Source: a virus (Duplodnaviria > Caudoviricetes). From it: DNA of 64,000 nucleotides. Under the pieces are notes generated by a model. That model worked only from the letters and a program-made list of their open reading frames with translations. It ran no database searches and was not told the DNA's origin. Location: IMG/VR virus record IMGVR_UViG_3300028412_000003. One strand, 5' to 3'. The translations under genes were made by a program, and so were the position numbers. Shown here one piece after another: positions 28,396 to 51,919 of the stretch (the first letter of the stretch is position 1; each line of letters opens with the position of its first letter).

Positions 28396-29649
28396 TTATT
28401 CTTCGTAATGAGCAGTTACACCAAACGGTGCTTGCAGAGATTTATTTGAATTACCATGAATGATAAACAATGTATCACAGTATTCAGGATCACCCCATGA
28501 ATTATAAGGATACCCGTCAGTAAACATGATAAACAATTTAGGTGCAATTTCTTTGTTTTTCATAAAACTCCAATTTGCATCAAAATCAGTTCCGCCGCCG
28601 CCTTTAATAGAATAGCTACCAATGTCACGACCGTCGTCACCGTTAAACTTATCATGGTTATAAACAGCAGTATCAAAACACCATACGTCAATTTCGTAGT
28701 CTTGAAACTCTTCAACAATGCCTTTTATTTCTGACATAAAATCAGAAGCTTGTTTGTCACCAATAGATCCAGACATGTCAATGCCAATTGCAACCTCGAT
28801 ACGAGTTTGATTGGCACTACCTGGAAGAATAGCACCGCTCTGTTGACCTTTTCGACTTGGTCGCATAAACGTAAAGTCATCCTTTCGAAGACTTTTGATC
28901 TGTTGTTGAATCAATTCTCTCCAATTTATCTTAGGTTCGGTTAACTCACGGATCATACGCTGTATCCCTGCTGGGGTATTTCCAGCACCTGCTCCCATTG
29001 CAGCAGCAATCATATCCTTTTTAATTTCGTCTCGGATCCGACGTAATTCTTCTCTGGTATAACGAGGCTGACCGTTTGCATCAATTCGACCACCACCTTT
29101 ACCGGTTTCGTCTTCCCAATCTAGATGATCATCTAGCAATTGACCAAGTGCGTCTAGTTCGGCGTCGTCCATCTTATTAAAAATATCATCATATACTTCT
29201 TCAGAAGTCCAGTTGTCATATTTCTTATCAATATAGATTTGAATCTGATCAACCATGTCACCAATTCTATCACGAACGAGCAATCCGTTGATTACATAGT
29301 CCGATGCAATATTAAAGATTCGGTGATCACGATCTTCTTTACGCAATCCGTGTTCAAACATGCAATGATAAATCTCATGTGCGATAACAAATTCAGTCTG
29401 CTTAATACTAAGCTGATTAAAGAACTCGACATTATAGTAAAGATTTTTACCGTCTGTTGCAGCAGTATTGCAAAATGCACCACCTTCTTGAATTTTCAAT
29501 CGAGTTGACATATTGCCAAAAAATGGATGTCGAAGCAAGAGTGCAATCCGCGCCGTGATAATCTTATCAACTACTTCTGGTCGCATTGCTTCAATTTCAG
29601 CTTCGGTAATATCGGGATTAGGCTTCCAACTCTTAATATTGACAGTCAT
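28396..29649 (-). CDS. Metallopeptidase-like/VWA domain protein (DUF2201-like), MoxR partner
   Basis: TAATDG, HEIYH (HExxH), IDMSGS MIDAS motif, GGGTDF, FTDG; start moved to the ATG at 29649 (GGAG RBS). Confidence 0.8.
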   Translation of the reverse strand: MTVNIKSWKPNPDITEAEIEAMRPEVVDKIITARIALLLRHPFFGNMSTRLKIQEGGAFCNTAATDGKNLYYNVEFFNQLSIKQTEFVIAHEIYHCMFEHGLRKEDRDHRIFNIASDYVINGLLVRDRIGDMVDQIQIYIDKKYDNWTSEEVYDDIFNKMDDAELDALGQLLDDHLDWEDETGKGGGRIDANGQPRYTREELRRIRDEIKKDMIAAAMGAGAGNTPAGIQRMIRELTEPKINWRELIQQQIKSLRKDDFTFMRPSRKGQQSGAILPGSANQTRIEVAIGIDMSGSIGDKQASDFMSEIKGIVEEFQDYEIDVWCFDTAVYNHDKFNGDDGRDIGSYSIKGGGGTDFDANWSFMKNKEIAPKLFIMFTDGYPYNSWGDPEYCDTLFIIHGNSNKSLQAPFGVTAHYEE

Positions 29650-29677
29650 AGAACACTCCTCTGTTACTTTATATTTA

Positions 29678-29706
29678 ATTATAAAGCAAATTTCGCAATT
29701 AATCAA
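29678..29706 (-). promoter_or_regulatory. Sigma70-type promoter
   Basis: TTGATT-17-TATAAT on the - strand upstream of the VWA gene. Confidence 0.55.
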
Positions 29707-29709
29707 GAG

Positions 29710-29741
29710 AAAAGACGGATGTTTTTCAACACCCGTCTTTT
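29710..29741 (-). terminator. Intrinsic terminator-like hairpin after the MoxR gene
   Basis: AAAAGACGGGTGTT-GAAA-AACATCCGTCTTTT, 14-bp stem with one G-U pair. Confidence 0.7.
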
Positions 29742-29745
29742 TAGT

Positions 29746-30840
29746 TTATGCTCGATTTGCAGCCGTGATGTACTTACCGTACTTATTGTGAAACTTCTCA
29801 AAGTGCGGTGCTTCATCAACGTCTACTACTAGACCGTATTGAGTCATAGCAATCTTGACTCCCATAACAACCATTTCTGTATCAAAGTTGTCCATGGAAA
29901 ACTTTAGGAAGCGATCAAACTTTTTAGCGAAGACCTTTTCGTCGTCTTTCTCGTTTGAGTCTTTTAGTTCGTAGCAAAGAGCTACTGTTAAGGAGTACAT
30001 AGCACTGACTTCCTTAGTAGAAATCTTCTCTACCTTCCCGCTCAAGATATCAGTTGGGTTAGGAAGTCCTGCGGAATTCCTACGGTGACCCATGAATTTA
30101 ATAGCAAGCCCCTCACCAATTGAACCGCTCACGAGGTCCATAGTTGTCTCTTCGTTGTCGTCGTCGTAAATCAATTCACTAACAAACGACCAAGAACGAG
30201 GAGTTGCAAAAGAACGACCACTGTTAGGACGGAAATCGTTCAACGAAGCCTTGTCAAATGTAATGTAACCAATAACATCTGGATGTTCACCGTTCTTAAC
30301 AGCCCATTCAAACCAATCATCATAAGATGAAATCATCTCAATGTGAACGAATCGATTAGCAAGAGGAGCAGGCATACGGTTAACAACACCGCGATCACCT
30401 TCGCGGTTACCTGCTGCAATAATGTAAACATTATCGGGCAAAGTGTAAGTACCAACCTTTCGATTAAGAATAAGCTGGTAAGCAGCAGCCTGCACAGAAG
30501 GTGCAGCTGAATTCATCTCGTCTAAAAACAAGATGATATTCTTGTGTTGAGAAGCAAGTTCTTGATCTGGAAGTTCAACCGGGGAACCCCATACCATCTT
30601 CTTAATCTCTGGATCAAAATATGGGATACCCTTAATATCAGTTGGTTCCCACAAAGACAACCGAACGTCAATGACATGAGCATTAAGATCGTCACCTAGT
30701 TGATTAACAATGTCAGACTTACCAATACCTGGCTGACCCCACAAGAAGATAGGACGCTTGCGTCGGTGTGCCCGTAGAATTGCTCGCTTGGCACCCTTAG
30801 GGGTAACCTGACGAACGTTAATATCAATATCTGTAGCCAT
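29746..30840 (-). CDS. MoxR-like AAA+ ATPase
   Basis: Walker A GQPGIGKS, Walker B LFLDE, AAGNR, PLANRF, TPRSW. Confidence 0.85.
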   Translation of the reverse strand: MATDIDINVRQVTPKGAKRAILRAHRRKRPIFLWGQPGIGKSDIVNQLGDDLNAHVIDVRLSLWEPTDIKGIPYFDPEIKKMVWGSPVELPDQELASQHKNIILFLDEMNSAAPSVQAAAYQLILNRKVGTYTLPDNVYIIAAGNREGDRGVVNRMPAPLANRFVHIEMISSYDDWFEWAVKNGEHPDVIGYITFDKASLNDFRPNSGRSFATPRSWSFVSELIYDDDNEETTMDLVSGSIGEGLAIKFMGHRRNSAGLPNPTDILSGKVEKISTKEVSAMYSLTVALCYELKDSNEKDDEKVFAKKFDRFLKFSMDNFDTEMVVMGVKIAMTQYGLVVDVDEAPHFEKFHNKYGKYITAANRA

Positions 30841-31907: not shown

Positions 31908-32364
31908 TCTTCAACGCTGCTTTCATTTCAATTTCTGTCTTAAAAGGACCTTTGTATTCATATCCTTCAATTGTTGATACTTTTGGACAAAAAGATTTAA
32001 CCCATCCTTTGTCAAAGTTTATTATATAATAACCAGCACAATACAAACTTTTTGATTTTTCACTCTTTGTAAAGAGAGGAAGCTTTCTTTTTATGTCAAA
32101 CATTGCGGTTGCAGACTTTGTACTAATAGGAAATCCATAAATTTCATTTATCTTTATTTCAGTTTTATCTTCAACTTCCGTTGAAGTCCAAACAATTTTT
32201 CCTAAATGTTTCTTTAACTTGCTTTCGTTGTCAAACACAATGGTACCGGTTTGACATTGGTAGACAAACCTATCTTCTTCTTTTGTAATTGTACCTAAGC
32301 TCTTATCGTTTTCGTTAACGATCCAAAATTTGCCTTTAAGCAGAGATTTTGCATTTATTGTCAT
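31888..32364 (-). CDS. Hypothetical protein
   Basis: 158-aa ORF. Confidence 0.55.
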   Translation of the reverse strand: MTINAKSLLKGKFWIVNENDKSLGTITKEEDRFVYQCQTGTIVFDNESKLKKHLGKIVWTSTEVEDKTEIKINEIYGFPISTKSATAMFDIKRKLPLFTKSEKSKSLYCAGYYIINFDKGWVKSFCPKVSTIEGYEYKGPFKTEIEMKAALKNANRTT

Positions 32365-33346
32365 TTAAATACCTCGAACTATATTGTTCATTATATGTAA
32401 GGATGTTATCACTAACGCGACGAAGATCCCATTTGGCACAAAATTTTGCCAATAATATACCAACTTGACTAACATCCTTTGGATTATTAGTAGATTCGCT
32501 GATAGTTTCGTTTATCATTTCTTGTACATGATCCGGTTGTGCAGTAAGATCACAAAGTTCAACGTTTCTTTTATAATCGTCTATAACTCTATGTTCTACA
32601 TCGTTATGATCAGTCCAGCGTTGCAACATGAAATTGTTCCAGTTATATCCTTTTGTATTTTTGTCTTCAAAAGCTTCTAACATTCCAACCTTTTTTGCAG
32701 TACCCTTTTTTCGTGCGCCGGGATAAGCAGGGAACACATTATCACTCTTGTCGCCACGTATGCACTTTTCAAATAACAACCAGTTAGGATTAGGTGCAGG
32801 CTTTTCTTTTTTAGTTTTTTTATCGATTATAGGCTTGCCTTTATCGTCAAAATATCCTTCGTGTGTAATGGTAGTATTCGTAACACCATTGTATTGTGAT
32901 ACAGTAGGGGATATCAATTGAGCAAAATCACCATCGGTAGAAAGTACAACATGGTTATCATCAGGATGAGCACGAATCCATCCTGCAATAAGATCATCAG
33001 CTTCTAAATTAGGATGTCTCAAAACAGTACAGTTTGTCTTTTCGTTTATAAAATCTTTAAACTCATCAAACACTTCCCAGAAGAGTTTTTCTTCTTCTTG
33101 TTCCTTTGCAGACATAGCTGCTCTATCTTCTGATCTATTCTTTTTATAAGGTTCGTAATAATCCTTTCGCCAAGATCGACCTTCTAAACAAAAGACCACA
33201 TGTTTCCCATCAAAATCCTTCCATGCTTTTCTTATAGCATTGAGGGTAATATGAAAACACATACCTATTTTTGTATCTAAATCACCCCTAACAACATGTC
33301 GAGCGCGAAAGAATAAGTTGGCGGTATCTACTATAATATAAGTCAT
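32336..33346 (-). CDS. rnh: T4 RNase H-like / 5'-3' exonuclease (PIN/FEN fold)
   Basis: IIVDTAN, LEADDLIA, LSTDGDFAQL, IRGDKSDNV acidic motifs. Confidence 0.85.
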   Translation of the reverse strand: MTYIIVDTANLFFRARHVVRGDLDTKIGMCFHITLNAIRKAWKDFDGKHVVFCLEGRSWRKDYYEPYKKNRSEDRAAMSAKEQEEEKLFWEVFDEFKDFINEKTNCTVLRHPNLEADDLIAGWIRAHPDDNHVVLSTDGDFAQLISPTVSQYNGVTNTTITHEGYFDDKGKPIIDKKTKKEKPAPNPNWLLFEKCIRGDKSDNVFPAYPGARKKGTAKKVGMLEAFEDKNTKGYNWNNFMLQRWTDHNDVEHRVIDDYKRNVELCDLTAQPDHVQEMINETISESTNNPKDVSQVGILLAKFCAKWDLRRVSDNILTYNEQYSSRYLNDNKCKISA

Positions 33347-33932: not shown

Positions 33933-34802
33933 TCATGTTCCCCATGCGTTTCCGAAGACTTCGACATGGAGCCTTGGGGTATATCTCCAACCTTCTTGCA
34001 TCGCAATTTCAACGATTCTATCTTTATTGAGATAATATTCTTCACTTCTTCCACCCAGCGGCATAAGGTAGACAGGACAATTAATACCGGCTTTGCGGTA
34101 AGCATCAACAGCACGACGAACATCTTCCACATCATCGTCATTAGCGACAACAAACTTAAAATACATGTCGCTATTAGGAACATCAAAGTATTGACGAGCA
34201 ATATCAGGCTGTATTGCAGCATTCCAAGATTCGCCGCTAACTGTGAGCTTAGGCGAACATGAGAACGTAATTCGTATGTGGTCTTGATATCCGAAGAACT
34301 CTTTAAGATTTGATTGAAGATGTTGTGTAGTGTTAGTCTCGAAAGTAACATTTTTTAGATCCTTCATGTTAGGATGGTTAAACAACTCAACATACAATTT
34401 TTGCCAACCAAGCAAAGGTTCACCGCCTGTTAAAATAAAATGTATATCTTGTCCATTATCTAAAGACCATTTGCCGGTTGGAGTTAATTTCAATAAATTA
34501 TCAACTACGTCGTTTACTGTTTCATTTTTCATAAAACGTTTAAATTCAGGATAGATACTAGCATAAGTGTCACATCCTGTGTGTATAATCGGAAGGTCTT
34601 CAAATTTTTCATATTGGTCAATACCATTCTCTAGAAGTTGTTCTACTTCTGGATTATATTTTCCAACTTCTTGATCTTTAGGAAGACCAAATTTCTTGCA
34701 TCGAAAATTGCAACCAAAAGTTCGAAGAAATACACTAGGCACTCCAACAAACTTACCTTCACCTTGTATAGAATAAAATGCTTCGCTATATCTTAATTTC
34801 AT
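33933..34802 (-). CDS. queE: 7-carboxy-7-deazaguanine synthase QueE (radical SAM)
   Basis: YSEAFYSIQGEG..GVPSVFLRTFGCNFRC, CDT, LTGGEPL, FETN, SPKL, PRLH; adjacent to folE; start at 34802 by ATGA overlap. Confidence 0.85.
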   Translation of the reverse strand: MKLRYSEAFYSIQGEGKFVGVPSVFLRTFGCNFRCKKFGLPKDQEVGKYNPEVEQLLENGIDQYEKFEDLPIIHTGCDTYASIYPEFKRFMKNETVNDVVDNLLKLTPTGKWSLDNGQDIHFILTGGEPLLGWQKLYVELFNHPNMKDLKNVTFETNTTQHLQSNLKEFFGYQDHIRITFSCSPKLTVSGESWNAAIQPDIARQYFDVPNSDMYFKFVVANDDDVEDVRRAVDAYRKAGINCPVYLMPLGGRSEEYYLNKDRIVEIAMQEGWRYTPRLHVEVFGNAWGT

Positions 34803-35485
34803 CTTGGTGCCCACTGTTGTTGTAGTTTGATGTTATCAAAGAATTCTTGCTTTGTGGCAGGATCATGTTTAAATGCACCTTTTAGCACAGTAGTCTGTGT
34901 CAAACTAGAATGTGCCATTATGCCTCTGTTTTCGCAACATCCGTGAGTTGCTTGTATGTAAACTCCGACATCATTGCTGCCTGTTGCAGAAATTATTTCT
35001 TTTGCAATATCATTACATAATTCTTCTTGTAATGTACCACGTCTTGCACACCATTGTGCAATTCTTGTATATTTGCTGAGTCCTATCAATGTTTCTGCAG
35101 CAATAATTCCAATGTAAGCAACACCTGTAACAGGTTGATGGTGATGCGAGCAAACTGATTTAATTTCACTTCGCACCACCAACATTCCTGTATAACCATC
35201 TTCGACTTCGTTTGGGAACGAAGTTGCATCTGGCATTGGATAATATCTTCCACGCATTAATTCGTGTATATACATTTTCGCTAGTCTTCTACCTGTGTCC
35301 TTGCTATTAGGATCATTTAATCGATCTATAACAAGCGAGTCAAGCACTGCTTCAAATTTTTCTGTGAGCTCGTCAGTTAATTCTTCTAGCTCACCTTCTT
35401 GAATATGTTGGCTGATATTATCTCCAGCCCAATATGTATTACCTTCTTTTAAAATTCTATTCTTAATAATATTAGAGATAGTCAA
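34799..35485 (-). CDS. folE: GTP cyclohydrolase I
   Basis: SVCSHHHQP, GLSKYTRIA, LQEEL, HGCCENRG; TTG start. Confidence 0.92.
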   Translation of the reverse strand: MTISNIIKNRILKEGNTYWAGDNISQHIQEGELEELTDELTEKFEAVLDSLVIDRLNDPNSKDTGRRLAKMYIHELMRGRYYPMPDATSFPNEVEDGYTGMLVVRSEIKSVCSHHHQPVTGVAYIGIIAAETLIGLSKYTRIAQWCARRGTLQEELCNDIAKEIISATGSNDVGVYIQATHGCCENRGIMAHSSLTQTTVLKGAFKHDPATKQEFFDNIKLQQQWAPR

Positions 35486-35568: not shown

Positions 35569-35820
35569 TTAACCGTCAAACCTACTATCTTTTACTTGTT
35601 GTTCAGCCCATGCCTTTTCTTCGGGAGCAACAGTGTTAAATTCAATTACCCGAAATCTTTTCCAAATAGCACCTGCTTCTTTTGCTTCCTGTTCGGAATT
35701 GTAAGTAACAACAATTCTATCACCTACAATACCATTTGGATGTTCGGTTGTTACATAAATCCAATCATCATGGCCTTCTTCATCCTTACTAAACGGTATT
35801 TGTATTGAATATACTTTCAT
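35569..35820 (-). CDS. Hypothetical protein
   Basis: 83-aa ORF. Confidence 0.5.
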   Translation of the reverse strand: MKVYSIQIPFSKDEEGHDDWIYVTTEHPNGIVGDRIVVTYNSEQEAKEAGAIWKRFRVIEFNTVAPEEKAWAEQQVKDSRFDG

Positions 35821-36317
35821 TATTCAGACTCCCAAGGATAAACTAACCAAACGTTTTCTTCGTTCTTATCAATCTCTTCAAATACATAATTAACAGAACC
35901 AAATCCACTTGATATGTTATCGGTCATTACTGCAAAACGAACGTTTCCACCCCATATAGTTCCATCGGTCCATTTACCGTCAAGTGGACAACACGAAGAA
36001 TTCCAATCTTTTTGTATCCATTCAAAAGTAGCACCTTTATCGTTTATGTCATCTACTATAAGTATTTTTTTTCCATTAAACGCATCTTCTGCCATCCAAA
36101 GATTTGATTCAACGTCGTCTGGATTACTTCTAAGGCTAACATTAAGAGTGTGACACGGAATTTGGATAATATGAGACAACATAACTGCGAGTGTAAGTCC
36201 ACCCCTTGTTATACCAACAATATAATCAGGTTTCCATTCATCTCGTAACATTTGTTTGAGAAAAGTGTTACAAGCATCGTCAACGTCGTTCCAGTCATAA
36301 TATTGTTTATTTTTCAC
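35820..36317 (-). CDS. Purine phosphoribosyltransferase (Gpt/Hpt-like type I PRTase)
   Basis: IVGITRGGL, PRPP-binding ILIVDDINDKGAT, C-terminal WLVYPWE; probable GTG start at 36317. Confidence 0.8.
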   Translation of the reverse strand: MKNKQYYDWNDVDDACNTFLKQMLRDEWKPDYIVGITRGGLTLAVMLSHIIQIPCHTLNVSLRSNPDDVESNLWMAEDAFNGKKILIVDDINDKGATFEWIQKDWNSSCCPLDGKWTDGTIWGGNVRFAVMTDNISSGFGSVNYVFEEIDKNEENVWLVYPWESE

Positions 36318-36636
36318 CTTTGATAATCTCCAATGTTTCGTATTTGTTTTTAATTTCAACATACCGAGTACCTGCTCTTTTAAGTTCGGGGTACTTTTCT
36401 TCCATTACAAGATCTCTTTCAACTATTAATAGTCGTTCTTGCAAATTGCGTATAGCTTCATCTACGTTTTCTATATTTGCTGTAGATAGATATGATGAAA
36501 AGAGTACATCAGCGTCTATTCTATCACATCTTATATTACCATTAATTCTCACTTCTGGAATAGAATCAAAGTTATTACGAATAGTATCAGATATTTTTGT
36601 TCCCGAACTTGCTATTGGATTAATTGTTAATCCCAT
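36307..36636 (-). CDS. Hypothetical protein
   Basis: 109-aa ORF. Confidence 0.5.
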   Translation of the reverse strand: MGLTINPIASSGTKISDTIRNNFDSIPEVRINGNIRCDRIDADVLFSSYLSTANIENVDEAIRNLQERLLIVERDLVMEEKYPELKRAGTRYVEIKNKYETLEIIKGEK

Positions 36637-38028: not shown

Positions 38029-38213
38029 CTCTTGTACCTATTATCTCTTGTTTGCCGTGGTCTACCTTTGCTTCTAGTATAAACCTGGTATGCTCTCCAA
38101 CTATCACTAGAATTCTTATAAAGATCTGCCTCATTAAAAACCTTGCCATTAAAACGACAATAATCTCGGAATTGATCTAAATCATCAAATATCCGTTCGA
38201 GTTCAATTTTCAT
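38025..38213 (-). CDS. Small hypothetical protein
   Basis: MKIELERIFDDLDQFRDYCRF; start moved to 38213. Confidence 0.5.
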   Translation of the reverse strand: MKIELERIFDDLDQFRDYCRFNGKVFNEADLYKNSSDSWRAYQVYTRSKGRPRQTRDNRYKR

Positions 38214-38637
38214 TCTCATCCTTTCTTGGATAAAATAGTGTGGCACCATTTTCGCCGTCTTCTGCTACTTCTATTTCTACAAAGCGACCGGGGTACCTTT
38301 TATTAATTTGCTTATATAAATCATCTGCTATCATTTCGCAAGACCTATGATTTAATTCAAGTTTTTCTTGATATAATGATTCTAACCAACGCTTAAATTG
38401 TATAAATTCAATATCTCTATCGTTGTGAAACACTTCAATTCGAACACGAAAATGAAATAAATGTCTATGTTCGTATCCTAAGAAACTAACATCATATTCA
38501 TCTCCGGTCGCAAGAGCAGCATTAGTGTCTGCTCCGGGATAAAAATGTATTCCTTCTTTCCTAAAAGTAATCCAAATACTTCTTATTGGATCTAAGTTAT
38601 TCTTTTCTGGTTCTTTATTAAACCAATAATTCTTCAT
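38203..38637 (-). CDS. dpdL: QueD-paralog T-fold protein (DpdL-like, putative CDG decarboxylase)
   Basis: FLGYEHRHLF fits the LxxxHRHxF signature I recall for DpdL; RDIEFIQFK, SCEMIA; lies in a deazaguanine locus. The symbol is tentative. Confidence 0.6.
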   Translation of the reverse strand: MKNYWFNKEPEKNNLDPIRSIWITFRKEGIHFYPGADTNAALATGDEYDVSFLGYEHRHLFHFRVRIEVFHNDRDIEFIQFKRWLESLYQEKLELNHRSCEMIADDLYKQINKRYPGRFVEIEVAEDGENGATLFYPRKDENEN

Positions 38638-39170
38638 TATGATATTATCTCGTCTTTTGTATATTTTGACCAGTCTGTAAATACTCGTCTGTCTTGTAAA
38701 TCATGGATTGGATGAACCCATACGCCTGGATTTGATTTACGAAAGTCACTGTCATCTATTTTTAGGCAGGCGTTATAATTTAATGATTTAATGTTTGGTA
38801 TCTTTACACTTATGAGAGGAATAAAACGATCATACTCTCCCCAACAAAACTCAGTTACAAACTCGTGATATTTAATATCATAATCGAGTGTAAACCACAT
38901 TTCACTCTTTGATAGCTCTTTCATTAAATTAGTCCAATATTTTATTTCTTCGTCTGTACCATTTGGTAAAGTAGGATTAAACGATTGATTAGCCCCAAGA
39001 TAAATGTGTTCACAACCTTTTATTCTAGCATATTCTAATATATCTTCTGCTAGTGGTTTCTTAGTAAGAAACAATGTTTTCATTCCATAAGCAGGAGTAT
39101 GTTCTACTTCAACACCTATAAAAGTGGAAACATCATTAGAAGTTACGTTTCCTGAGTATTGTCTTTCCAT
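38637..39170 (-). CDS. Uncharacterised protein in the deazaguanine locus
   Basis: 177-aa ORF coupled between the TGT-like and DpdL-like genes. Confidence 0.6.
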   Translation of the reverse strand: MERQYSGNVTSNDVSTFIGVEVEHTPAYGMKTLFLTKKPLAEDILEYARIKGCEHIYLGANQSFNPTLPNGTDEEIKYWTNLMKELSKSEMWFTLDYDIKYHEFVTEFCWGEYDRFIPLISVKIPNIKSLNYNACLKIDDSDFRKSNPGVWVHPIHDLQDRRVFTDWSKYTKDEIIS

Positions 39171-39337
39171 TGTAATTCTTTCTCTACTTTAAATAATTCA
39201 TCTTTTATTGCTAATTTTTTGATTTTAAGTTTGCTTATTTCTTCTGTAGGCAGTTTATTATTATAAGCGTCTTTCACTTGTTTGTCAAGAATATTATGTT
39301 TTTCAGTTAATGATTCTATACGATTAGTCAAGGTCAT
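39143..39337 (-). CDS. Small coiled-coil protein (DUF465-like)
   Basis: LTEKHNILDKQV..LKIKKLAIKDEL. Confidence 0.55.
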   Translation of the reverse strand: MTLTNRIESLTEKHNILDKQVKDAYNNKLPTEEISKLKIKKLAIKDELFKVEKELQWKDNTQET

Positions 39338-40922
39338 TCTCTAATTTCTCCAATAACTCTTCATTTTCTTCTGTGAAGGTTTCTTCTTGTGTAACAGTTT
39401 CTTCTTCTTCAAAAAGACTATGAAAAAATGTTGTTGAGTTAATGGTCTTCTTACCAATTGCACCTCGTGTACCAGGAATATCCATCCAATATGCACGATG
39501 CTCTTCAACTAACGCTTCTGCCTTTTCTCTGTCGTCTGTAGCAAAAATATCTTCAACTATATCACGAAAAAATTCTCTCTTATAAGTTCGAAACTTCTTT
39601 CCGTGTAATTTCGAAGCAATTAGCATATGTGGAAATGTACCAGAATCACACATTCTATTAGCTTCCTGTACTGCATTGATATGAGACCAAACATTATGTC
39701 CCATTTGTATAGCATATGAAAAGCTGTCCCAAGAAGTTCTTCCTTCTTTACCTATTTTATTTAGGTCTCCCGGCTTATAGATACACACGTCTGATACCCC
39801 TAATCCATCTGTTATAGGAGAATCAACGAAGTCTCTAGTTATTAATACATTGCCGGCTGAATCTTTCTTATCAAAAATACCATCTTGTAAAACAGTATCA
39901 CGAAATCCACGAGGATCAGTTGCATATTTTTTGTTATCAATACTTGGTAACATTCGATATGTCCATTTACCCATAGGTTCTGTTTCAGTCTGTAAATAAA
40001 TTTGTCCATTAGCAGTAGCTAAGAAAGGACTTGCACAATCAAATGTTATTGTATAATTTTCATTATGATGTTTTCGAACTGCACGCTGTATATCTGTTAA
40101 CAAACATGCCCATTCTAATTTTGAAGTACCCAAAAAGTGCATAAAATCATGAACACCCTTTTCTAAATATCCATCAAAACGAAGTGCAATCAAACGCTTT
40201 AACACAAGGTGGACATCACACATATTTTGTCCACCCATTGACCATCCTTCAAAATGTTCATTTGGATATTTCTTTGGATCACAAAAATCACGCATCTGAA
40301 AATACCAATCGTCGGCTTCTTGAAATGTTTCACCCTGCAGAACGTTTAGAAATTTACAATTACCATTTCTATTCTTAATAAAATAATCATTATTAATTCT
40401 AGTAGCGTCAACTGCTCCTTGATATGAATTAATACCTGTTGCCGCTGCACCTGCAGGTGAACGAGCTACCCAGGCCGGAATATCTAATATCATTCCGTAA
40501 TCCATATATTTGTCCATCCAACTAAGAACATCTGTTCTTTTCTTCATTGCTTTAGGACAACTTGGATCCTTCCAATTGCCTTCCCACACTCCCTTACCAA
40601 TCTGGAAACCACCACTGTCACCAAGTACCCAAGAATTTTCACGATCTCTATTTCGGATCATATCTTCTTTAGGTGAATCCTTATTAACATCTAATTCAGC
40701 ATGTCCTGCTGAATAAAGTGACCATTTGTAATGAAATGCTCCTTCTTTTTTATTTAGGTAATTGAGACTTTCAACTCCGTTGTTAAAATTAGAAGGTATA
40801 CGAGTCTTATCTACATATTCACCAAAGCGTTGTTTACCTACATAAGTGGCATAGAAACCACTTAATGCAGGAAGAAAAAACGCATAATCGTTTTGTGTTG
40901 AGGTTAAATCTCTGTTAATCAT
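39324..40922 (-). CDS. dpdA: TGT-superfamily transglycosylase, DpdA-like (deazaguanine insertion)
   Basis: LGDSGGFQ (TGT catalytic Asp motif), NVLQG, GWSMGG, HFLG, TFDCASP; clustered with folE/queE. Confidence 0.78.
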   Translation of the reverse strand: MINRDLTSTQNDYAFFLPALSGFYATYVGKQRFGEYVDKTRIPSNFNNGVESLNYLNKKEGAFHYKWSLYSAGHAELDVNKDSPKEDMIRNRDRENSWVLGDSGGFQIGKGVWEGNWKDPSCPKAMKKRTDVLSWMDKYMDYGMILDIPAWVARSPAGAAATGINSYQGAVDATRINNDYFIKNRNGNCKFLNVLQGETFQEADDWYFQMRDFCDPKKYPNEHFEGWSMGGQNMCDVHLVLKRLIALRFDGYLEKGVHDFMHFLGTSKLEWACLLTDIQRAVRKHHNENYTITFDCASPFLATANGQIYLQTETEPMGKWTYRMLPSIDNKKYATDPRGFRDTVLQDGIFDKKDSAGNVLITRDFVDSPITDGLGVSDVCIYKPGDLNKIGKEGRTSWDSFSYAIQMGHNVWSHINAVQEANRMCDSGTFPHMLIASKLHGKKFRTYKREFFRDIVEDIFATDDREKAEALVEEHRAYWMDIPGTRGAIGKKTINSTTFFHSLFEEEETVTQEETFTEENEELLEKLENDLD

Positions 40923-41650
40923 TTAGCCTGCGCTGGAAGAATATAATCGTATGTAGCTAATCCGCTATCAACAGATATCTTCATTGCGCCCTGATCTGAT
41001 AATCTCATAGTTATCTTACCATCTAAGCTAAGTATAGCAAGGGTTTGAGCAACAGGCCAAGACCATGTGTGCTTTAATTCACCTGTTATATTACTTTGAA
41101 AAATAAATTTTCCTGCATGTGATGATTCATCACCAAATGTCATTACTAATGCACCGTCTTCGGTTTTAACATTAACTATTAATTCATCTGGATTTCCAGC
41201 AGCCTGTAACTTCATTCTTCTTATAGAATCAATAGCGGGTTCAAGTTCAACGTTCCATGTTGCTCCCTTAAACTTCACATTCTTTAATTTTTCTTCAATG
41301 TGAGCTTGATTCATAAATCTATAATCATTTTCAAAATCACCATTTGAATTCTCAAAATGAATATGTGTATTGATAGTTTCTCCCTTTCGAACATCAGTCT
41401 TAATTTCAAGAACACTATCTTTTTCGTATTCTGGATTTTTTAGATGAAAAGCCAGAAGTCCTAAGTTTGGCATGCCAAACGTACCAATAAATTCATCAAC
41501 CTTATTTTTAGTTGCAGCCATTAGTATAACTGTTCTATCTTCAGACATAGTTTCAATTTTAGTCTTGTCTTCTTCGTTTGTCACCTTAACTAGGGATAAG
41601 AACCCCAATGAATGTGTATGCGCTATAATATCTTTAAGTATATCTTTCAT
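40919..41650 (-). CDS. DNA polymerase sliding clamp (gp45/PCNA-like)
   Basis: 243 aa, directly after polB, C-terminal SGLATYDYILPAQ; start moved to MKDILKD (GGAG RBS). Confidence 0.7.
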   Translation of the reverse strand: MKDILKDIIAHTHSLGFLSLVKVTNEEDKTKIETMSEDRTVILMAATKNKVDEFIGTFGMPNLGLLAFHLKNPEYEKDSVLEIKTDVRKGETINTHIHFENSNGDFENDYRFMNQAHIEEKLKNVKFKGATWNVELEPAIDSIRRMKLQAAGNPDELIVNVKTEDGALVMTFGDESSHAGKFIFQSNITGELKHTWSWPVAQTLAILSLDGKITMRLSDQGAMKISVDSGLATYDYILPAQAK

Positions 41651-41672
41651 ATTATTCTCCGTATGATTTATT

Positions 41673-41701
41673 ATATTACTATGAATTTTTCGTATTGTCA
41701 A
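41673..41701 (-). promoter_or_regulatory. Sigma70-type promoter for the clamp-dpdA operon
   Basis: TTGACA-17-TAATAT on the - strand. Confidence 0.55.
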
Positions 41702-41718
41702 GAAAAATCATCTTTTGA

Positions 41719-44385
41719 TTAATCTCCAAAATCAAATAAACTTCCAAATGTTGTGTCTTGTTTTGTAGATTCGATGTCATAATTCAAGACACCTATTAAG
41801 TTATCAATTTTATTATCAATGATAGTATTTTCCATTGCTCTGTCATCAAAAGGTAAATCCTTAAACCATTGCGGTAAGCGTAGTTCGTCTGTTGGAAATG
41901 CAACACTTGTAAATCCTAATGGATTTGGCCTTAGTTTACAAACGATAACTTTCATTCCATCAACTATGTCTTGGCTGTAACGATCACTATTCATTCTTTT
42001 TAAAGTATTCCAATTAAGTGATGCACGAACGTGTCCTGGCATATTTGCCTTTCCTTTTTCTTCTTCTAAATCTCGAAATTTACTTAGGTTGTTAACACGT
42101 TTGGGAGTTCCTTTTTCCCAACCAGGCCGTTCCTTAAATAGACTACGAAAATCTTCAATCTTTTTTAAAATTTCGTTTTCGTCTTTTGTTGTTAAAACCA
42201 TAAGTAGAATATCCTTAAGGAAGTCTTGCATAAAAACCGGAGTATCTGATCGCCGCAAATCTAATCCCATTGCTTTAACCTTACCAATTTGACCGTCTAT
42301 ATCTTTTCTGTTACCGTCGTCGTCAATTACTAGGGCAGCATATCTTTTCTTAGTAATATACAATCCACTCTGTGCAACAATTTCTCTACCTGCTGCAATA
42401 ACACCTGAGCGAGATTTAGGACAATGATATGCATCAGCCATAAATCTAGTAAATGATTTATTTGTTTCTTCTGCTACTTGATCATATAACTGAATTATAC
42501 GTTCCTTTTCCCAAGGAATAGTACCATTGTCTATTTCGTCTTTTAGTATAGGATAAGCACTAAAATAAACAGAATCGGTATCACCGTATATAACAGCCTT
42601 ACCAACGTGGTCATATTCTCCTGTTATTACTTCGTTTGCCTTTGCACTCATATGTTGAACAATTCCTCTACCAGTAAGTGTAGTTGATTGACCAATTCTT
42701 TTATCAAAGAACCTACAACCTGGATTTAAGATAGCACCATATAAGCTATTCAAATTAATCTTCTTAACAAGCTGACGCTTGTCCCAAAAGGCTATTTCGG
42801 TTTTATTGTTGGCATCAATTGCCTTTTTTAATTTTGCTTGTAATTCTTTACGTTCTGAATACCAACGTTTTAGAAGTCCAGGAATGACAGCTTCGAATTC
42901 ATTTGTAAAAATAGTACCATTAGCACTAATCATCCAAGGATTGTTACTATTGAATATAAGTTCGTAGGTTTCTGCACCGCTAAGTACATCAACATCTCCG
43001 TTCTCCCAATCGATGGTAATATCTTTACCTCTATTTTTTTCTATCATATGTTTGTATTCAATAGAACTAAACAATCCTTCCCATGCTCCTGCAAAAGACT
43101 TCTTCTCAAAAGTCATCTTTTCTTTTATATAAGCATCGGTATCGGTTGGTCGTAATTGGCCAACTACTGCTTCCGGAGCCATATTCAATGCACGAATAAC
43201 AGATGGATATAGTGAATTTAAATCCATTGATGCTAACCACATATGCAAGCCTTTCTTTGGATAAGCAACATATGCTCCGGCTGCACTTGAATTCTCTCGG
43301 TCAACAACTGGACGATTAGGAACTACCATTCCTCTATCATGTGCTTCGTTTATGATAGCCTGTTCGGTAACTGCAACTGCTCCCATAGTAGTTTGCAATA
43401 AAACAGTATTAGAATGAGCTAGTTCGTTTGACAAATCAATAAAGCGAAGTTTACGATCAAGTTTATCAAGCAACGAAGTATCTTGTCTGTTATATTCAAT
43501 AAACTTTTTAAAGTCATTATTATATAATTGATCAAGTGTTCCTTCGTATACTGTTTTGTTTTCACCTATTTCAATTTCACCAATAGCATCCAACCGATAA
43601 GAATGTCTTTCTTCATAATTATATTTACGATACAATTCTAAACTATCGAGATGAACTCTGCCAATTAAATCAAATGTTACTGCTTCTTTACCGTATTTTT
43701 CATAGAGTCGTTTCTTTGGAAGTTGATCCCATAAACAAAATCTTCTAGTATCATTCTTACTTAATACTCTTGCAACACGGTTAACTGTATACGGAATATC
43801 ATATCCTTCACTATTCCAACCAGTTAACATATCGGCATCTTCTATTAGATCAAGAAATGCAGATAACATTTCACCTTCGTCACTGTAGAGATAGGTATTA
43901 GGAAAATCTTTAACTTGCTCTTCTGCATCTTTCATACTAAGCCCCTTTGGAGGCATAGCAAGGGTGACTAGTGTATCCATCCATTGTAAACAAACACTAA
44001 TAGCAGTGATTGGCATAAATGGATCACTTGGCTGAGCAAATCCTTTTTCTGGATCAAAGTCAGTCTCAATATCAAAAAATGCAATATTAAGTTCTGGTGC
44101 ATCTGCAGTGAGGTAATTCTCACTTAAACATTGAAAAATAGGATTAATGTCGCTTTCAAATAAAGTTTTGCTTTTATTGATCGCTACTTCTTTTCTAAAT
44201 TCCTTTGTATTTTTACAAACTATTCTTGTTACTGGATCACCGTAAACACTTCGTTGTTTACCAGCTGGATCCTTATAATAGAATGTATATTTAATAGGAT
44301 ATTCTTTAAATATCCTCTTGCCTTCTTTACGTTCAACGACACGAATAATATCCGCATCTCTATCAAACATTGCATCAATGTACAT
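41719..44385 (-). CDS. polB: Family B DNA polymerase
   Basis: ExoI FFDIETD, motif A DLNSLYPS, motif B KINLNSLYG, motif C YGDTDS, KKRYA; no intein visible. Confidence 0.95.
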   Translation of the reverse strand: MYIDAMFDRDADIIRVVERKEGKRIFKEYPIKYTFYYKDPAGKQRSVYGDPVTRIVCKNTKEFRKEVAINKSKTLFESDINPIFQCLSENYLTADAPELNIAFFDIETDFDPEKGFAQPSDPFMPITAISVCLQWMDTLVTLAMPPKGLSMKDAEEQVKDFPNTYLYSDEGEMLSAFLDLIEDADMLTGWNSEGYDIPYTVNRVARVLSKNDTRRFCLWDQLPKKRLYEKYGKEAVTFDLIGRVHLDSLELYRKYNYEERHSYRLDAIGEIEIGENKTVYEGTLDQLYNNDFKKFIEYNRQDTSLLDKLDRKLRFIDLSNELAHSNTVLLQTTMGAVAVTEQAIINEAHDRGMVVPNRPVVDRENSSAAGAYVAYPKKGLHMWLASMDLNSLYPSVIRALNMAPEAVVGQLRPTDTDAYIKEKMTFEKKSFAGAWEGLFSSIEYKHMIEKNRGKDITIDWENGDVDVLSGAETYELIFNSNNPWMISANGTIFTNEFEAVIPGLLKRWYSERKELQAKLKKAIDANNKTEIAFWDKRQLVKKINLNSLYGAILNPGCRFFDKRIGQSTTLTGRGIVQHMSAKANEVITGEYDHVGKAVIYGDTDSVYFSAYPILKDEIDNGTIPWEKERIIQLYDQVAEETNKSFTRFMADAYHCPKSRSGVIAAGREIVAQSGLYITKKRYAALVIDDDGNRKDIDGQIGKVKAMGLDLRRSDTPVFMQDFLKDILLMVLTTKDENEILKKIEDFRSLFKERPGWEKGTPKRVNNLSKFRDLEEEKGKANMPGHVRASLNWNTLKRMNSDRYSQDIVDGMKVIVCKLRPNPLGFTSVAFPTDELRLPQWFKDLPFDDRAMENTIIDNKIDNLIGVLNYDIESTKQDTTFGSLFDFGD

Positions 44386-49005: not shown

Positions 49006-49683
49006 TTAGTTATGTTCTAATTCATAAACTTTCTTTATCTTATCAGATATTCTCATATTGAGAACAGTCAGCATTATATCGTCTCTTACATATATTTGAA
49101 GAGAAGATATAACATGACCATTTTTTAATTCTTTAGCTCCCCCTTCTGAAATCTTTATCTTACCTTTGTTATTCTCTACCCATTTAGGAAATTTACTATC
49201 TGAAATATTATTTACTATCACTTTGTACTTATAATCCTTAAATGCATCTGATACTATTAATTTACCAGATTCTAAAGAAGACAAATTATTTGGATCTGGT
49301 TCAGTTAAATCAATTGCTAAATTAGCCTTAATAAGTTTGTTAGGAATATCCATATCGTTTGTATAGATCATTAGTTCGTTATTTTCTTTTCTTAAAGAAA
49401 AATCTTTATTTTTAGTTAAAATCTCTTTTAATTTTAGAGCATCTTGATATTCTTTAAACGATATATTAATTGTTCTTTTTACTGGTACTAATGGATTAAT
49501 ACAAATTTCAGTATCGGGATACGGCTTACTATTTAACTCGTTAAATTTATTATCTATTCTATCAAGTAATGCGTTGGTTGTTTTATATTTTGGATAATCA
49601 AGCCAACGGGTTAGGCAATGCCTAACCCGTGTTCTGTAGAGATATTTACCATAGAATAATTTTTTGGTCTTATACCTCTTCAA
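49006..49683 (-). CDS. Hypothetical protein
   Basis: 225-aa ORF, TTG start overlapping the clpA end. Confidence 0.55.
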   Translation of the reverse strand: MKRYKTKKLFYGKYLYRTRVRHCLTRWLDYPKYKTTNALLDRIDNKFNELNSKPYPDTEICINPLVPVKRTINISFKEYQDALKLKEILTKNKDFSLRKENNELMIYTNDMDIPNKLIKANLAIDLTEPDPNNLSSLESGKLIVSDAFKDYKYKVIVNNISDSKFPKWVENNKGKIKISEGGAKELKNGHVISSLQIYVRDDIMLTVLNMRISDKIKKVYELEHN

Positions 49684-51919
49684 TTGTTAGCACCTCATGC
49701 GTAATGTCAAACTCTAGTGCATCATTATGAGCGTTAATTGTAACAGTTCCGCCATTCTTAAGAAGACCAAATAGCATTTCTTTAGCTAGAGGGCGTTTGA
49801 TCTCGTCGTTTATTAGACGCTTAAGAGGACGGGCACCATACATTGGGCTAAATCCTTTTTCTGCAAGATAATCAAAGGCTTCGCCAGTCATTTCAATATT
49901 GACTCCCTTTTCTTTTACTTTAAGTTTTAGCTCACGCATGAATTTTCCAACTATCTTAATTATGATTTCCTTAGGCAACTTGCCAAACTTGATAATACCA
50001 TCAAGTCTGTTACGGAATTCAGGAGCAAAGAATTTTTCAACAGCTTTTAAATCATATTCCTTATCTAAAGGAGTGCTAAAGCCAATGTTTTTCTTTTCTG
50101 CATCTGATGCACCAAGGTTAGTGGTAATGATAAGAGTTACGTTACGAAAATCTGCAACCTTATTATTTGCACCAGTTAACTTTCCATTATCCATAATCTG
50201 CAACAATATTTGAGAAACATCAGGGTGTGCTTTTTCTATTTCGTCAAGCAATAACACACAGTTAGGATTTTCTTGAATTGCTGTGATGAGCGCACCTGCA
50301 TTGTCTTCAAATCCAACGTAGCCTGGAGGAGAACCAATCAACCTAGATACAGAGTGTTTCTCCATATATTCTGTCATGTCAAACCTTACTAGCTTAACGC
50401 CTAGTTCTTCTGACAAAGCCTTTGCTGTTTCAGTCTTACCTACACCAGTTGGTCCCATAAAGACAAAAGAACCAATTGGCTTATCATCTTCTTGCAATCC
50501 AGCTTGTGCAATAATAACCTTATCAACTAGTGCAGTAACAGCAGAATCTTGACCATATACCTTGCCTAAGATATTCTTTTCAAGGTTAGCCATATTCTCG
50601 CTTTCTTTTTCAGCAATTCGATCAGCATCTATGTTAACCATATGAGACAGTTCGCGTTGAATATTTTCAACATCTACTGTCTTGTTTTCAGTTTGATTTA
50701 TCAATTTAAATCGAGAACATGCAACATCAATAAGATCTATTGCCTTATCAGGCAATTTCTTATCTGGTTGATATTTAACTGACAATTTAATTGCTTCTTT
50801 AATAGCACCGTCTGTAATAACAGCATCATGAAATTCTTCATAATACTGTTTGATAGACAGAAGAATTTCTTCTGCTTCAGATGCACTAGGTTCATTAACT
50901 GTAACACGTTGAAAGCGCCTCATTAATGCACGATCCTGTTCAAAATACTTTCTGTATTCTTCCCATGTAGTAGAAGCAACAACCTTAACATCGCCCTTAC
51001 CTAATGCAGGTTTAAGCATATTAGCCAAGTCATTTGCATTATTAGAAGAACCAGACCCAGCACCATTCATCATATGTGCTTCATCAATAAACAAAACACA
51101 CTTACCTTTTTTAACAATGGCACTCAATACTGCCTTAAAGCGTTCTTCAAAGTCACCTCGGTATTTAGATCCTGCAAGCATTGAACTTATATCAAGGTTG
51201 TAAACTGTGTAATCTTTTAGAAATTCTGGAACATCACCATTTACAATCTTGTATGCTAGTCCTTCAACAATTGCAGTCTTACCTACACCAGGATCACCAA
51301 CAAGAATTACGTTATTCTTATTACGCCTACCAAGTGAAAGTGCAATACGATCAAGTTCTGCACTACGGGCAATAACAGGATCAATCTTTTTCTGTTTTGC
51401 TCTTCTGTTCAGGTCAACGGTAAAAGTCTTTAGTGCTTTTTGTTCACCTTGTGTGATCTCTTCAGCTTCTATTGCTTCTTCAATTTCTGTATTAACAAAT
51501 TCAGCAAAAGATGATCGGTCAATACCAGCTTGAGTCAAATAATAATAACACATTGACTTCTTTTCATGCAACATACTTATGAGTACATCAGTAAGTTCCA
51601 TTGTACGACCGCCACTAAACAAGACCTGTGTAAATGAACGATTTAATACTCGCTCAACTGTTTGAGTCTTCTTTGGCTTATATTTTGTAATTGAAGAATC
51701 AACCTTGATATCATCTAGCTTAGTCTTAAGCATCTTATCTAAATTAGTTTGAACGTAGTTTACCTCTGTTCCGTATCCCTCAAGCAATTTTACAAAATTT
51801 TCTTCTGTAAGCATTGCGAACAATAGATGCTCTAACGTCACATATTCATGACGTAAATTCTTTGCTATTTCTACTGCTTTTTCGAAAATAGAAGATAGTT
51901 CTTTAGACGGTTCGACCAT
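49670..51919 (-). CDS. clpA: ClpA-like two-AAA-domain Hsp100 chaperone
   Basis: Clp-N HEYVTLEHLL, GDPGVGKT, LFIDEAH, GPTGVGKT, LLDEIEKAHP, GARPLKR; about 750 aa with no ClpB middle domain. Confidence 0.9.
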   Translation of the reverse strand: MVEPSKELSSIFEKAVEIAKNLRHEYVTLEHLLFAMLTEENFVKLLEGYGTEVNYVQTNLDKMLKTKLDDIKVDSSITKYKPKKTQTVERVLNRSFTQVLFSGGRTMELTDVLISMLHEKKSMCYYYLTQAGIDRSSFAEFVNTEIEEAIEAEEITQGEQKALKTFTVDLNRRAKQKKIDPVIARSAELDRIALSLGRRNKNNVILVGDPGVGKTAIVEGLAYKIVNGDVPEFLKDYTVYNLDISSMLAGSKYRGDFEERFKAVLSAIVKKGKCVLFIDEAHMMNGAGSGSSNNANDLANMLKPALGKGDVKVVASTTWEEYRKYFEQDRALMRRFQRVTVNEPSASEAEEILLSIKQYYEEFHDAVITDGAIKEAIKLSVKYQPDKKLPDKAIDLIDVACSRFKLINQTENKTVDVENIQRELSHMVNIDADRIAEKESENMANLEKNILGKVYGQDSAVTALVDKVIIAQAGLQEDDKPIGSFVFMGPTGVGKTETAKALSEELGVKLVRFDMTEYMEKHSVSRLIGSPPGYVGFEDNAGALITAIQENPNCVLLLDEIEKAHPDVSQILLQIMDNGKLTGANNKVADFRNVTLIITTNLGASDAEKKNIGFSTPLDKEYDLKAVEKFFAPEFRNRLDGIIKFGKLPKEIIIKIVGKFMRELKLKVKEKGVNIEMTGEAFDYLAEKGFSPMYGARPLKRLINDEIKRPLAKEMLFGLLKNGGTVTINAHNDALEFDITHEVLTIEEV

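Follow-up and report, generated by a model that had tools for sequence, protein, structure and literature searches.

A putative DpdA-like DNA guanine transglycosylase with a candidate clamp-binding tail in a viral replication locus

The DNA considered here, referred to as the window, is a stretch of 64,000 nucleotides (nt) from a virus of the Caudoviricetes (Duplodnaviria; IMG/VR record IMGVR_UViG_3300028412_000003). The virus is a marine jumbo phage, and three successive genes on the minus strand of the window encode a family B DNA polymerase (PolB), a sliding clamp and an enzyme of 532 amino acids (aa) that resembles the tRNA-guanine transglycosylases (TGTs). It is proposed that this enzyme is a DpdA-like DNA guanine transglycosylase, fed by a FolE/QueE pathway and tethered to the clamp by a C-terminal tail with an LF motif, and the probability of this reading is put at roughly 0.6. 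DpdA is the signature of 7-deazaguanine DNA modification, a phage anti-restriction strategy. The new feature proposed is the clamp tethering of a DNA base-exchange enzyme, and the action of the enzyme itself would be DpdA-like.

Folds of the enzyme and of the clamp

A preliminary description of the window, made from its letters alone, had read the 532-aa protein as a TGT-fold enzyme longer than typical bacterial TGTs, and both points were borne out. The fold, which is invisible to sequence libraries, was seen via the motif DSGGFQ, an AlphaFold (AF2) model, fold searches and hhalign. The model reached a predicted local distance difference test (pLDDT) score of 90.5 and a predicted template modelling (pTM) score of 0.87, and in Foldseek the top rank went to the Zymomonas TGT (E 1.7e-7, probability 1.0). 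The VIA fold search, which aligned the model exhaustively to 48,161 PDB representatives, gave Z scores of 18.4 for the archaeosine TGT (ArcTGT), 17.2 for QTRT2, 16.6 for bacterial TGT, 15.8 for the DNA preQ0 insertase DpdA and 14.9 for Cap10, with other TIM barrels at 11.8 or below; the five best non-redundant PDB matches all belong to the TGT superfamily. Among the predicted viral structures of BFVD, the nearest named neighbours were the phage transglycosylases of Motura (4e-11) and Vibrio phage nt-1 (7.5e-10). By its model, the 532-aa protein is a TGT-type TIM barrel and belongs, though very divergent, to the TGT superfamily.

When the family profile was aligned to E. coli Tgt by hhalign (probability 90%, E 1.7e-6), the enzyme motif DSGGFQ placed D102 on D89, LDIP placed D147 on D143, and FDCASP placed D295 on D264 of MFDCVMP. 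Further pairs were LQG with IQG, GWSMGG with GYAVGG, and HFLG with YLMG. Because D102, D147 and D295 pair with D89, D143 and D264 of E. coli Tgt, two aspartates of catalysis and one that binds the base, the enzyme keeps, as judged from this alignment, the complete catalytic set of TGT base exchange. Ten positions are invariant in an alignment of 55 members reaching down to 26% identity, including D102, S103, G105, D147, H262, G265 and D295. The alignment to Tgt ends just past the nucleophile D295, and everything by which the enzyme exceeds bacterial Tgt, roughly 150 residues (532 aa, E. coli Tgt having 375), follows on the C-terminal side of this residue. The modelled catalytic barrel covers residues ~11–440 and is devoid of a canonical zinc subdomain, and the parts that follow D295 are a beta subdomain (~307–361), helices (400–480), a disordered segment (487–514) and a terminal helix (518–531).

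The 243-aa product of the upstream gene was modelled with a pLDDT of 91.2 and shows two clamp domains of repeated topology that an interdomain loop links. Its 38 top fold matches are without exception clamps or processivity factors (Z 14–18). Over the full length, VIA gave Z 17–18 for PCNA (best 17.9), 16.5 for T4 gp45 (6drt) and about 15 for beta clamps, and Foldseek matched PCNA with E 2.7e-11. Identity to any solved clamp is at most 16%. The sequence libraries gave one PHROG match with no function assigned, the clamp profile found no solved clamp among PDB sequences, and hhalign of the clamp family against the 'possible sliding clamp' of CPt10 gave nothing useful. The homologue in Sinorhizobium phage Phosso carries the annotation 'sliding clamp'. 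On the strength of the model, which matches PCNA, gp45 and beta clamps, the protein belongs to the PCNA/gp45 type of sliding clamp, in agreement with the preliminary description.

The LF tail and its predicted docking

The C-terminus of the enzyme reads ...TTFFHSLFEEEETV...LEKLENDLD. The disordered segment (pLDDT <50) includes a short helical turn at residues 500–503 (F-H-S-L), and in the close clade the tail follows the pattern GTRGA.GKKT.N..T.F..LF[DE]. Many close relatives stop 2–4 residues past the LF motif, so the acidic extension present here is optional. The core of the tail, T-x-F-x-x-L-F-[D/E], resembles the end of PolB, TFGSLFDFGD. C-terminal tails of this kind hold gp45 in the case of T4/RB69 gp43 and T4 ligase, and the tail described here would be like them (gp43; T4 ligase peptide, 6DRT) in being an aromatic/hydrophobic peptide in a disordered terminus, docked under the interdomain loop. 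The T4 gp45-peptide complex 6drt, with the ligase peptide, is among the fold matches of the clamp.

The tails of PolB and of the enzyme fall into the same LF motif class in all seven lineages in which both genes could be read, a match of motif class only, as residue-by-residue covariation between the two tails was not evident in the close clade. The pairs, with PolB given first, are SLFDFGD and HSLFEEE in this window, DSLFGW and NSLFDVD in Pseudomonas jumbo phage PA5oct, TDLFDW and NDLFGW in Vibrio phage 2.275.O, KMFTF and KLFDFGG in lineage L085, DLFDF and NLFDFS in L087, KLFNY and SLFEF in L088, and DLFTF and EGLF in Phosso. Among 96 diverse full-length representatives of the enzyme family, the pattern [LMF]F[DENSTQKG] was present in 49 of the 96 tails (45 residues) and in 88 of 917 internal windows, and 35 representatives carry LF, MF, IF or FF within the final eight residues. 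Within the window, [FY]..[LMF]F[DETNSQ] occurs in the last 45 residues of only 4 of 147 open reading frames (ORFs); these include PolB and the enzyme, and one other is an antisense ORF. No adjacent clamp was found beside three distant motif-less members with readable context.

The preliminary description had suggested that the HSLF segment could be a clamp-binding motif comparable to the SLFDF end of the polymerase, and had named a complex prediction of the clamp with C-terminal peptides as a check. Such a prediction was made with the clamp and enzyme residues 484–532, next to three controls and with an alignment of our own. It scored 0.73, 0.72 and 0.73, and the best of the three controls scored 0.00. 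By a calibration that is approximate since our own alignment was used, the mark of 0.73 is met by 58 of 80 solved complexes and by 2 of 110 mismatched pairs. The runs share at least 74% of contacts, with a partner pLDDT of at least 54. Enzyme residues 497–507 are predicted to contact the clamp at 39–42, 123–130 (interdomain loop), 220–222 and 237–242 (C-terminus), a predicted interface that corresponds to the canonical pocket for peptides below the interdomain loop. Disorder, enrichment, the match to PolB and docking together support in silico a role of the HSLF segment as a clamp-interacting peptide.

Beyond the LF motif, the acidic extension ends in a conserved amphipathic helix (L-D-E-T-K-L-E-E-L-E-D-E-Q-L in relatives) and occurs in part of the clade only; it might offer a second site to a partner or mimic DNA. 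Stretches similar to the LF tail were seen in other proteins. The TGT of Achromobacter phage Motura (L093:6624-8045) contains an internal GKKTTTNLFGGE stretch about 45 residues before its end, which resembles the GKKT..N..T.F..LF tail, and from this likeness clamp tethering may extend to the Motura DpdA group. Gene 228 of Phosso (L098:13916-14323; 135 aa), placed just after FolE, ends in ...LNDLFDFG, of the polymerase tail class, and is by sequence a further candidate, inside the deazaguanine module, for a client of the clamp. In the window, a 227-aa ORF (61197-61880, minus strand) has FINLFQ about 20 residues from its end and is the only other plausible gene with F..LF[Q] near the C-terminus.

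Proposed function and alternatives

That the enzyme is DpdA-like rather than tRNA-acting is supported by its fold, its catalytic residues and its deazaguanine-synthesis neighbours, and because the profiles lie closer to proteins of phage deazaguanine clusters than to Tgt. Over ~180 columns, hhalign matched the Motura 'tRNA guanine transglycosylase' with 96% (E 2.3e-9) and Schizotequatrovirus PVA8_337 with 96% (E 3.9e-9). PVA8_337 comes from the nt-1/KVP40 group, whose transglycosylase is the DpdA2 of the literature.

Cultured phages provide an additional line of evidence. The family is present, always as 'hypothetical protein', in PA5oct-like Pseudomonas jumbo phages, Phosso and Vibrio phage 2.275.O. 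No PF01702 match was found anywhere in the genomes of PA5oct or Vibrio 2.275.O by a search that was positive in 14 of 14 control genomes, and the present family is therefore the only TGT-superfamily candidate found in them so far. PA5oct DNA resists restriction enzymes with G-containing sites, which was read as modified G, and QueE and QueD were noted without a transglycosylase being named (PMC12191111). An earlier survey of jumbo phages (PMC7824862) mentions a 'deazaguanine synthesis/incorporation system' of PA5oct without detail, by which gp168 may be meant.

According to the proposed mechanism, FolE, a QueE-like enzyme and a QueD-like T-fold protein would build a 7-deazaguanine base from GTP. 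The clamp remaining on the new duplex would recruit the transglycosylase via its tail, which would occupy the hydrophobic pocket beneath the interdomain loop and hold the enzyme on fresh duplex for efficient modification. As in TGT and DpdA, D295 would attack C1' of a flipped-out deoxyguanosine, guanine would be released and the deazaguanine base installed. An adjoining phosphoribosyltransferase (PRTase) could return the released guanine to GMP and hence to GTP for FolE, with a GT-B enzyme perhaps adding a decoration to the product. What the analysis establishes are the folds, the conserved residues, the synteny, the motif statistics and the predicted docking; that DNA is the substrate, which base is inserted (no QueC, QueF or canonical QueD was found in the window), that the clamp is physically bound and that the PRTase serves salvage are inferred.

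Several observations weigh against this reading. The enzyme has no match in Pfam, PHROGs, NCBIfam, PADLOC or a PDB sequence search; a Pfam scan (including PF01702) of 55 diverse relatives gave no match either, and the family profile against PDB sequences gave nothing useful. By structure, tRNA-acting TGTs (Z 16.6–18.4) are slightly ahead of the bacterial DpdA (bDpdA; Z 15.8). TGTs and bDpdA conserve a structural Zn site (PMC10164549), whereas the motif CxCxxC...H is absent here and no conserved Cys cluster exists among the 55 members, in which only C380 (69%), H409 (84%) and H414 (42%) show partial conservation. Searches of the 64-kb window by tblastn with phage queries found no QueC, QueD, QueF, Gat or YhhQ, and divergent copies or copies outside the window are possible. 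About half of the diverse family members are without an LF tail, and the motif of the enzyme is internal, 28 residues before the end, in contrast to the terminal tails of the T4 type. The good score of the complex prediction may mirror the many solved complexes of PCNA with PCNA-interacting peptides (PIPs) or of gp45 with peptides rather than binding. The adjoining PRTase leaves room for a pre-replicative route at the nucleotide level. Finally, the distance from the clamp stop to the enzyme start varies between -1 and ~1400 nt, with inserted ORFs, in 80 related IMG/VR contigs, which are close relatives only (63–75% identity).

The variable spacing bears on another claim of the preliminary description, which had argued from the ATGA overlap of the two genes for stoichiometric co-expression and from there for a transglycosylase that rides the replisome. 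The overlap is specific to this genome, and tight translational coupling is not conserved: a spacing of 9 nt or less occurs in about 26 of 68 measured loci, small ORFs separate clamp and enzyme in PA5oct and Vibrio 2.275.O, and the enzyme gene of Phosso is relocated. In any case, an overlap fixes no stoichiometry, and this part of the argument had to be given up. Association with the replisome retains the in silico support of the tail peptide; the link of the enzyme to the replisome rests on that peptide and not on gene overlap.

The enzyme might be a DpdA-like transglycosylase whose LF tail binds another replisome protein (polymerase, single-stranded DNA-binding protein, helicase or primase) or is a nonspecific linker, with the clamp adjacency reflecting a shared replication operon. 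The Phosso enzyme, which adjoins primase and helicase (DnaB) and not the clamp, would fit such a situation, as would the variable spacing, the motif-less half of the family and a complex score that is possibly a memory of PIP-PCNA structures. On the other hand, PolB ends in the same motif class in every lineage examined and the polymerase tails of T4/RB69 bind gp45, the predicted contacts lie exactly in the interdomain-loop pocket with all three controls at 0.00, and motif-less members are found in loci without a clamp, so that a tail directed elsewhere than to the clamp is considered unlikely.

A pre-replicative route, in which the PRTase makes a 7-deazaguanine nucleotide that PolB incorporates and the TGT-like enzyme is secondary (acting, for example, on residual G, nucleotides or nucleosides), appears quite improbable. 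A type I PRTase is indeed a neighbour of FolE in this window and in several lineages, DpdA3 phages among them, and Campylobacter phages were at one time proposed to use a dNTP route (PMC6884629). The PRTase is equally explained as salvage of the exchanged guanine, the enzyme retains the full TGT base-exchange catalytic set, and a clamp-docking tail would be sensible only for an enzyme acting on duplex DNA. Moreover, the field at present regards every known 7-deazaguanine modification of DNA as post-replicative and DpdA-dependent (bioRxiv 10.1101/2023.04.13.536721).

Action on host or phage tRNA, into which the enzyme would place a queuosine precursor, is very improbable. Fold scores to tRNA TGTs are marginally on top and the catalytic residues are those of a tRNA TGT. 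Against this, searches of the enzyme gave neither a PUA nor another RNA-binding domain, the Zn subdomain that helps to bind tRNA is missing, the window holds no tRNA gene and the enzyme gene lies inside a replication module, hhalign favours phage DpdA-type proteins (E 2-4e-9) over E. coli Tgt, and PA5oct DNA appears G-modified.

Taking the enzyme as a clamp-tethered DpdA-like transglycosylase, it can be compared with the systems already described. The DpdA proteins of large myoviruses (nt-1/VH7D DpdA2, PVA8_337 and Motura) share with it a TGT-derived barrel and the motifs DSGG[FL]Q, LD.P, QG, H.LG and IS.D.S, and the transglycosylases of Motura and PVA8 are likewise encoded with FolE, QueD, QueE and QueC genes. 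In contrast, only the core aligns, similarity at the level of BLAST or HMMER is lacking, and members of the present family have ~500–560 aa compared with 458–473 aa. PVA8_337 has no LF tail, and the Motura and PVA8 genes are not annotated beside a clamp gene. The bDpdA of Salmonella Montevideo (7UI4), which inserts 7-deazaguanine into DNA, is also similar in its TGT-like barrel (Z 15.8 over 307 residues) and conserved catalytic aspartates. It retains the structural Zn site and requires the ParB-like ATPase DpdB (PMC10164549), whereas the enzyme described here has no canonical Zn motif and no PADLOC DpdA match, no DpdB was seen in this locus, and the sliding clamp is the proposed DNA-loading partner.

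DpdA3 (Cellulophaga phage phiST, Campylobacter CP220-like and Flavobacterium immuto phages) is comparable in being missed by standard hidden Markov models (HMMs) and found by remote homology only. It is linked to complete G replacement and is encoded near a DNA polymerase gene, as here, and in immuto_3-5A a PRTase is also near. With ~260 aa, DpdA3 is half the size of the present enzyme, and no clamp-type tail was seen on the immuto DpdA3. The relation is remote, with 40% probability over 108 columns for immuto_3-5A DpdA3 by hhalign, and E 4e-3, far down the list, for phiST M4SLA5 in BFVD. A guess that CPt10_1231 might be the Campylobacter DpdA3 was dropped, as hhalign shows no relation. The tRNA TGTs (E. 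coli Tgt and Z. mobilis TGT) have the fold and the three catalytic aspartates in common with the enzyme; they differ in their tRNA substrate, their length of 375 aa, their Zn subdomain and their Pfam PF01702 match, neither of the last two being present here.

A census of phage DpdA from 2023 distinguishes bDpdA and DpdA1-4 and takes insertion as post-replicative (bioRxiv 10.1101/2023.04.13.536721). For the named subfamilies, there was no PADLOC, NCBIfam or Pfam match and none to DUF6610 (DpdA4), and the 96% similarity to DpdA2-like/Motura proteins covers the core only. Because there is no match to the HMMs for bDpdA, DpdA1/2 (PF01702) or DpdA4 (DUF6610), because the enzyme has twice the size of DpdA3 and because the zinc site is lacking, the family looks, by these sequence comparisons, like a separate DpdA-like family.

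The literature searched contains no DpdA or other base-exchange enzyme tied to a sliding clamp. If the proposal is correct, this would be the first clamp-tethered phage DNA hypermodification enzyme and the first clamp-coupled transglycosylase anywhere. A clamp tether would offer a simple route to very high post-replicative replacement, since the clamp left behind the fork would deliver the enzyme to all new duplex. The eukaryotic PIP-box enzymes DNMT1 and UNG2 are recruited to PCNA behind the fork, and the present case would parallel them. At 90% identity the family forms at least 7978 clusters, which come for the most part from marine metagenomes and often from contigs of 200–350 kb; at 50% identity there are 968, and the family is very common in marine viromes. 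Since Pfam, PHROGs, NCBIfam and PADLOC all overlook it, surveys of deazaguanine viruses under-count it. A wider statement is held only tentatively, at somewhat less than even odds: that a large DNA base-exchange family (hundreds of 50% clusters, with near relatives from ocean metagenomes in the thousands) is physically coupled to the replisome via the clamp, and that an abundant marine and soil jumbo-phage lineage swaps guanine for 7-deazaguanine during replication, perhaps glycosylated by the GT-B enzyme. The three cultured carriers, PA5oct, Vibrio 2.275.O and Phosso, make the idea directly testable.

Locus layout, deazaguanine module and relatives

The window has a G+C content of ~33%, and a run of minus-strand genes extends from ~26 kb up to its end. 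On re-reading of the sequence, the ORF layout and coordinates, the ATGA overlap, in which the ATG of the enzyme is shared with the TGA of the upstream clamp gene, and the LEKLENDLD end of the tail were as the preliminary description had them (Table 1). For the clamp gene the most probable start is the ATG at 41650. It follows a GGAG ribosome-binding site and gives 243 aa, also the length of an identical database protein. The TTG at 41701, which had been listed as the start of the ORF, is an unlikely start in comparison.

Table 1. Features of the replication and deazaguanine region of the window
Feature	Position	Strand	Basis
Family B DNA polymerase (PolB), 888 aa	41719-44385	-	Pfam DNA_pol_B 1.4e-35, DNA_pol_B_exo1 4.4e-18; phrog_262 8e-193
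PolB C-terminal peptide TFGSLFDFGD, presumed clamp-binding tail	41722-41751	-	Translation; TF.SLFDFG[DE] kept in related contigs
Promoter-like TTGACA-17-TAATAT ahead of the clamp gene	41673-41701	-	Consensus scan, 10/12 matches
Sliding clamp, 243 aa, PCNA/gp45 superfamily	40919-41650	-	GGAG and ATG start; AF2 and fold matches
ATGA start/stop overlap of clamp and transglycosylase-like genes	40919-40922	-	Read from sequence
TGT-superfamily enzyme, 532 aa, DpdA-like, family without a name	39324-40922	-	AF2, Foldseek, VIA, hhalign
DSGGFQ motif, enzyme residues 102-107 (D102 = E. coli Tgt D89)	40602-40619	-	hhalign; invariance
Codon of D295, which pairs with the TGT nucleophile (E. coli D264)	40038-40040	-	hhalign; invariant 55/55
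Tail peptide TTFFHSLFEEE, enzyme residues 497-507, proposed clamp-interacting motif	39402-39434	-	Disorder, conservation, predicted interface
Acidic extension and terminal helix, enzyme residues 508-532, subclade only	39327-39401	-	AF2 model; alignment of relatives
Perfect sigma-70 consensus TTGACA-17-TATAAT, ~35 nt past the enzyme stop, inside small overlapping ORF 39143-39337	39260-39288	-	Consensus scan
Conserved protein, 144 aa, possible QueD/PTPS-like T-fold	38203-38637	-	hhalign, Atlas, identity to relatives
GT-B glycosyltransferase-like protein, 364 aa	36934-38028	-	Atlas clusters 'glycosyl transferase family 1', TM 0.88-0.95
Type I phosphoribosyltransferase (PRTase)	35820-36362	-	Pfam Pribosyltran 9.5e-14
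GTP cyclohydrolase I (FolE)	34799-35485	-	Pfam 6.8e-38
QueE-like radical SAM enzyme	33933-34814	-	phrog_2076 3e-48
5'-3' exonuclease (FEN/RNase H-like), end of the conserved module	32336-33346	-	Pfam 5_3_exonuc_N 2.5e-19; 52% to PA5oct gp159

Two promoter-like sites flank the clamp and enzyme genes, and their placement gives a hint of a two-gene unit. Such sites are no commoner in the region than in shuffled sequence, and a search for terminators in it found none. The small ORF that contains the downstream site may not be real, or the site may be a promoter of its own for the downstream pathway genes.

In all 80 IMG/VR loci, which are marine viral contigs, the order PolB-clamp-enzyme-o177-o144-o74-o364-PRT-FolE-QueE-exo is kept as far as the contig extends. 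PA5oct keeps the order of the module as well (gp173/171, gp170, gp168, gp167, gp166, gp162 and gp159). The genes that come after PolB, clamp and enzyme in Vibrio phage 2.275.O encode QueF, a YhhQ-type transporter, QueC, an amidotransferase-like protein and FolE. More distant lineages carry QueC, FolE and PRTase with the enzyme, and a distant tail-less member, seemingly in an integrated element, adjoins QueD, FolE and QueC.

The 144-aa protein of the module is 63–70% identical among this phage, PA5oct gp166, Phosso 223 and L087 and has an invariant H.H motif. A search of Pfam gave no match for it, and its QueD/PTPS signal is weak (hhalign to Motura QueD 66%, E 5.7e-5; Atlas lead PTPS 0.92); it may be the QueD of the pathway or a DpdL-like enzyme. 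The GT-B protein shows identities of 47% to a 'glycosyltransferase' of Phosso, 42% to PA5oct gp167 and 36% to its L087 counterpart, and its conservation within the module suggests glycosylated 7-deazaguanine or another sugar step in these phages. In two distant lineages, the transglycosylase is flanked by genes for further enzymes. L085 carries inositol-1-phosphate-synthase-like and ADP-ribosylglycohydrolase-like genes (3639-4937 and 7116-8006), and L087 carries phosphomannomutase and mannose-1-phosphate guanylyltransferase/isomerase genes (7232-7966 and 9520-10326). These neighbours hint at lineage-specific sugar chemistry.

The PRTase recurs beside FolE or the transglycosylase in unrelated deazaguanine phages (L002:8376-8771, L085:7981-8430 and L090:2846-3301), including one DpdA3 phage. 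Its role is not discussed in the DpdA literature examined, and it may serve either guanine salvage or a nucleotide route.

PolB is interrupted in some relatives, namely by an intein and extra ORFs in L088 (2955-7154) and by a Hef-like homing endonuclease in PA5oct (L004:1614-6840). Because of these interruptions and of a spacing between PolB and clamp that ranges from 35 to ~3900 nt in the 80 contigs, the PolB-clamp region appears to be a hotspot of selfish insertions. Elsewhere in the window, the minus strand encodes a full-length ClpB/ClpA-like double AAA+ protein of 749 aa (49670-51919) and a MoxR-like AAA+ ATPase beside a DUF2201 metallopeptidase/VWA protein (28396-30840).

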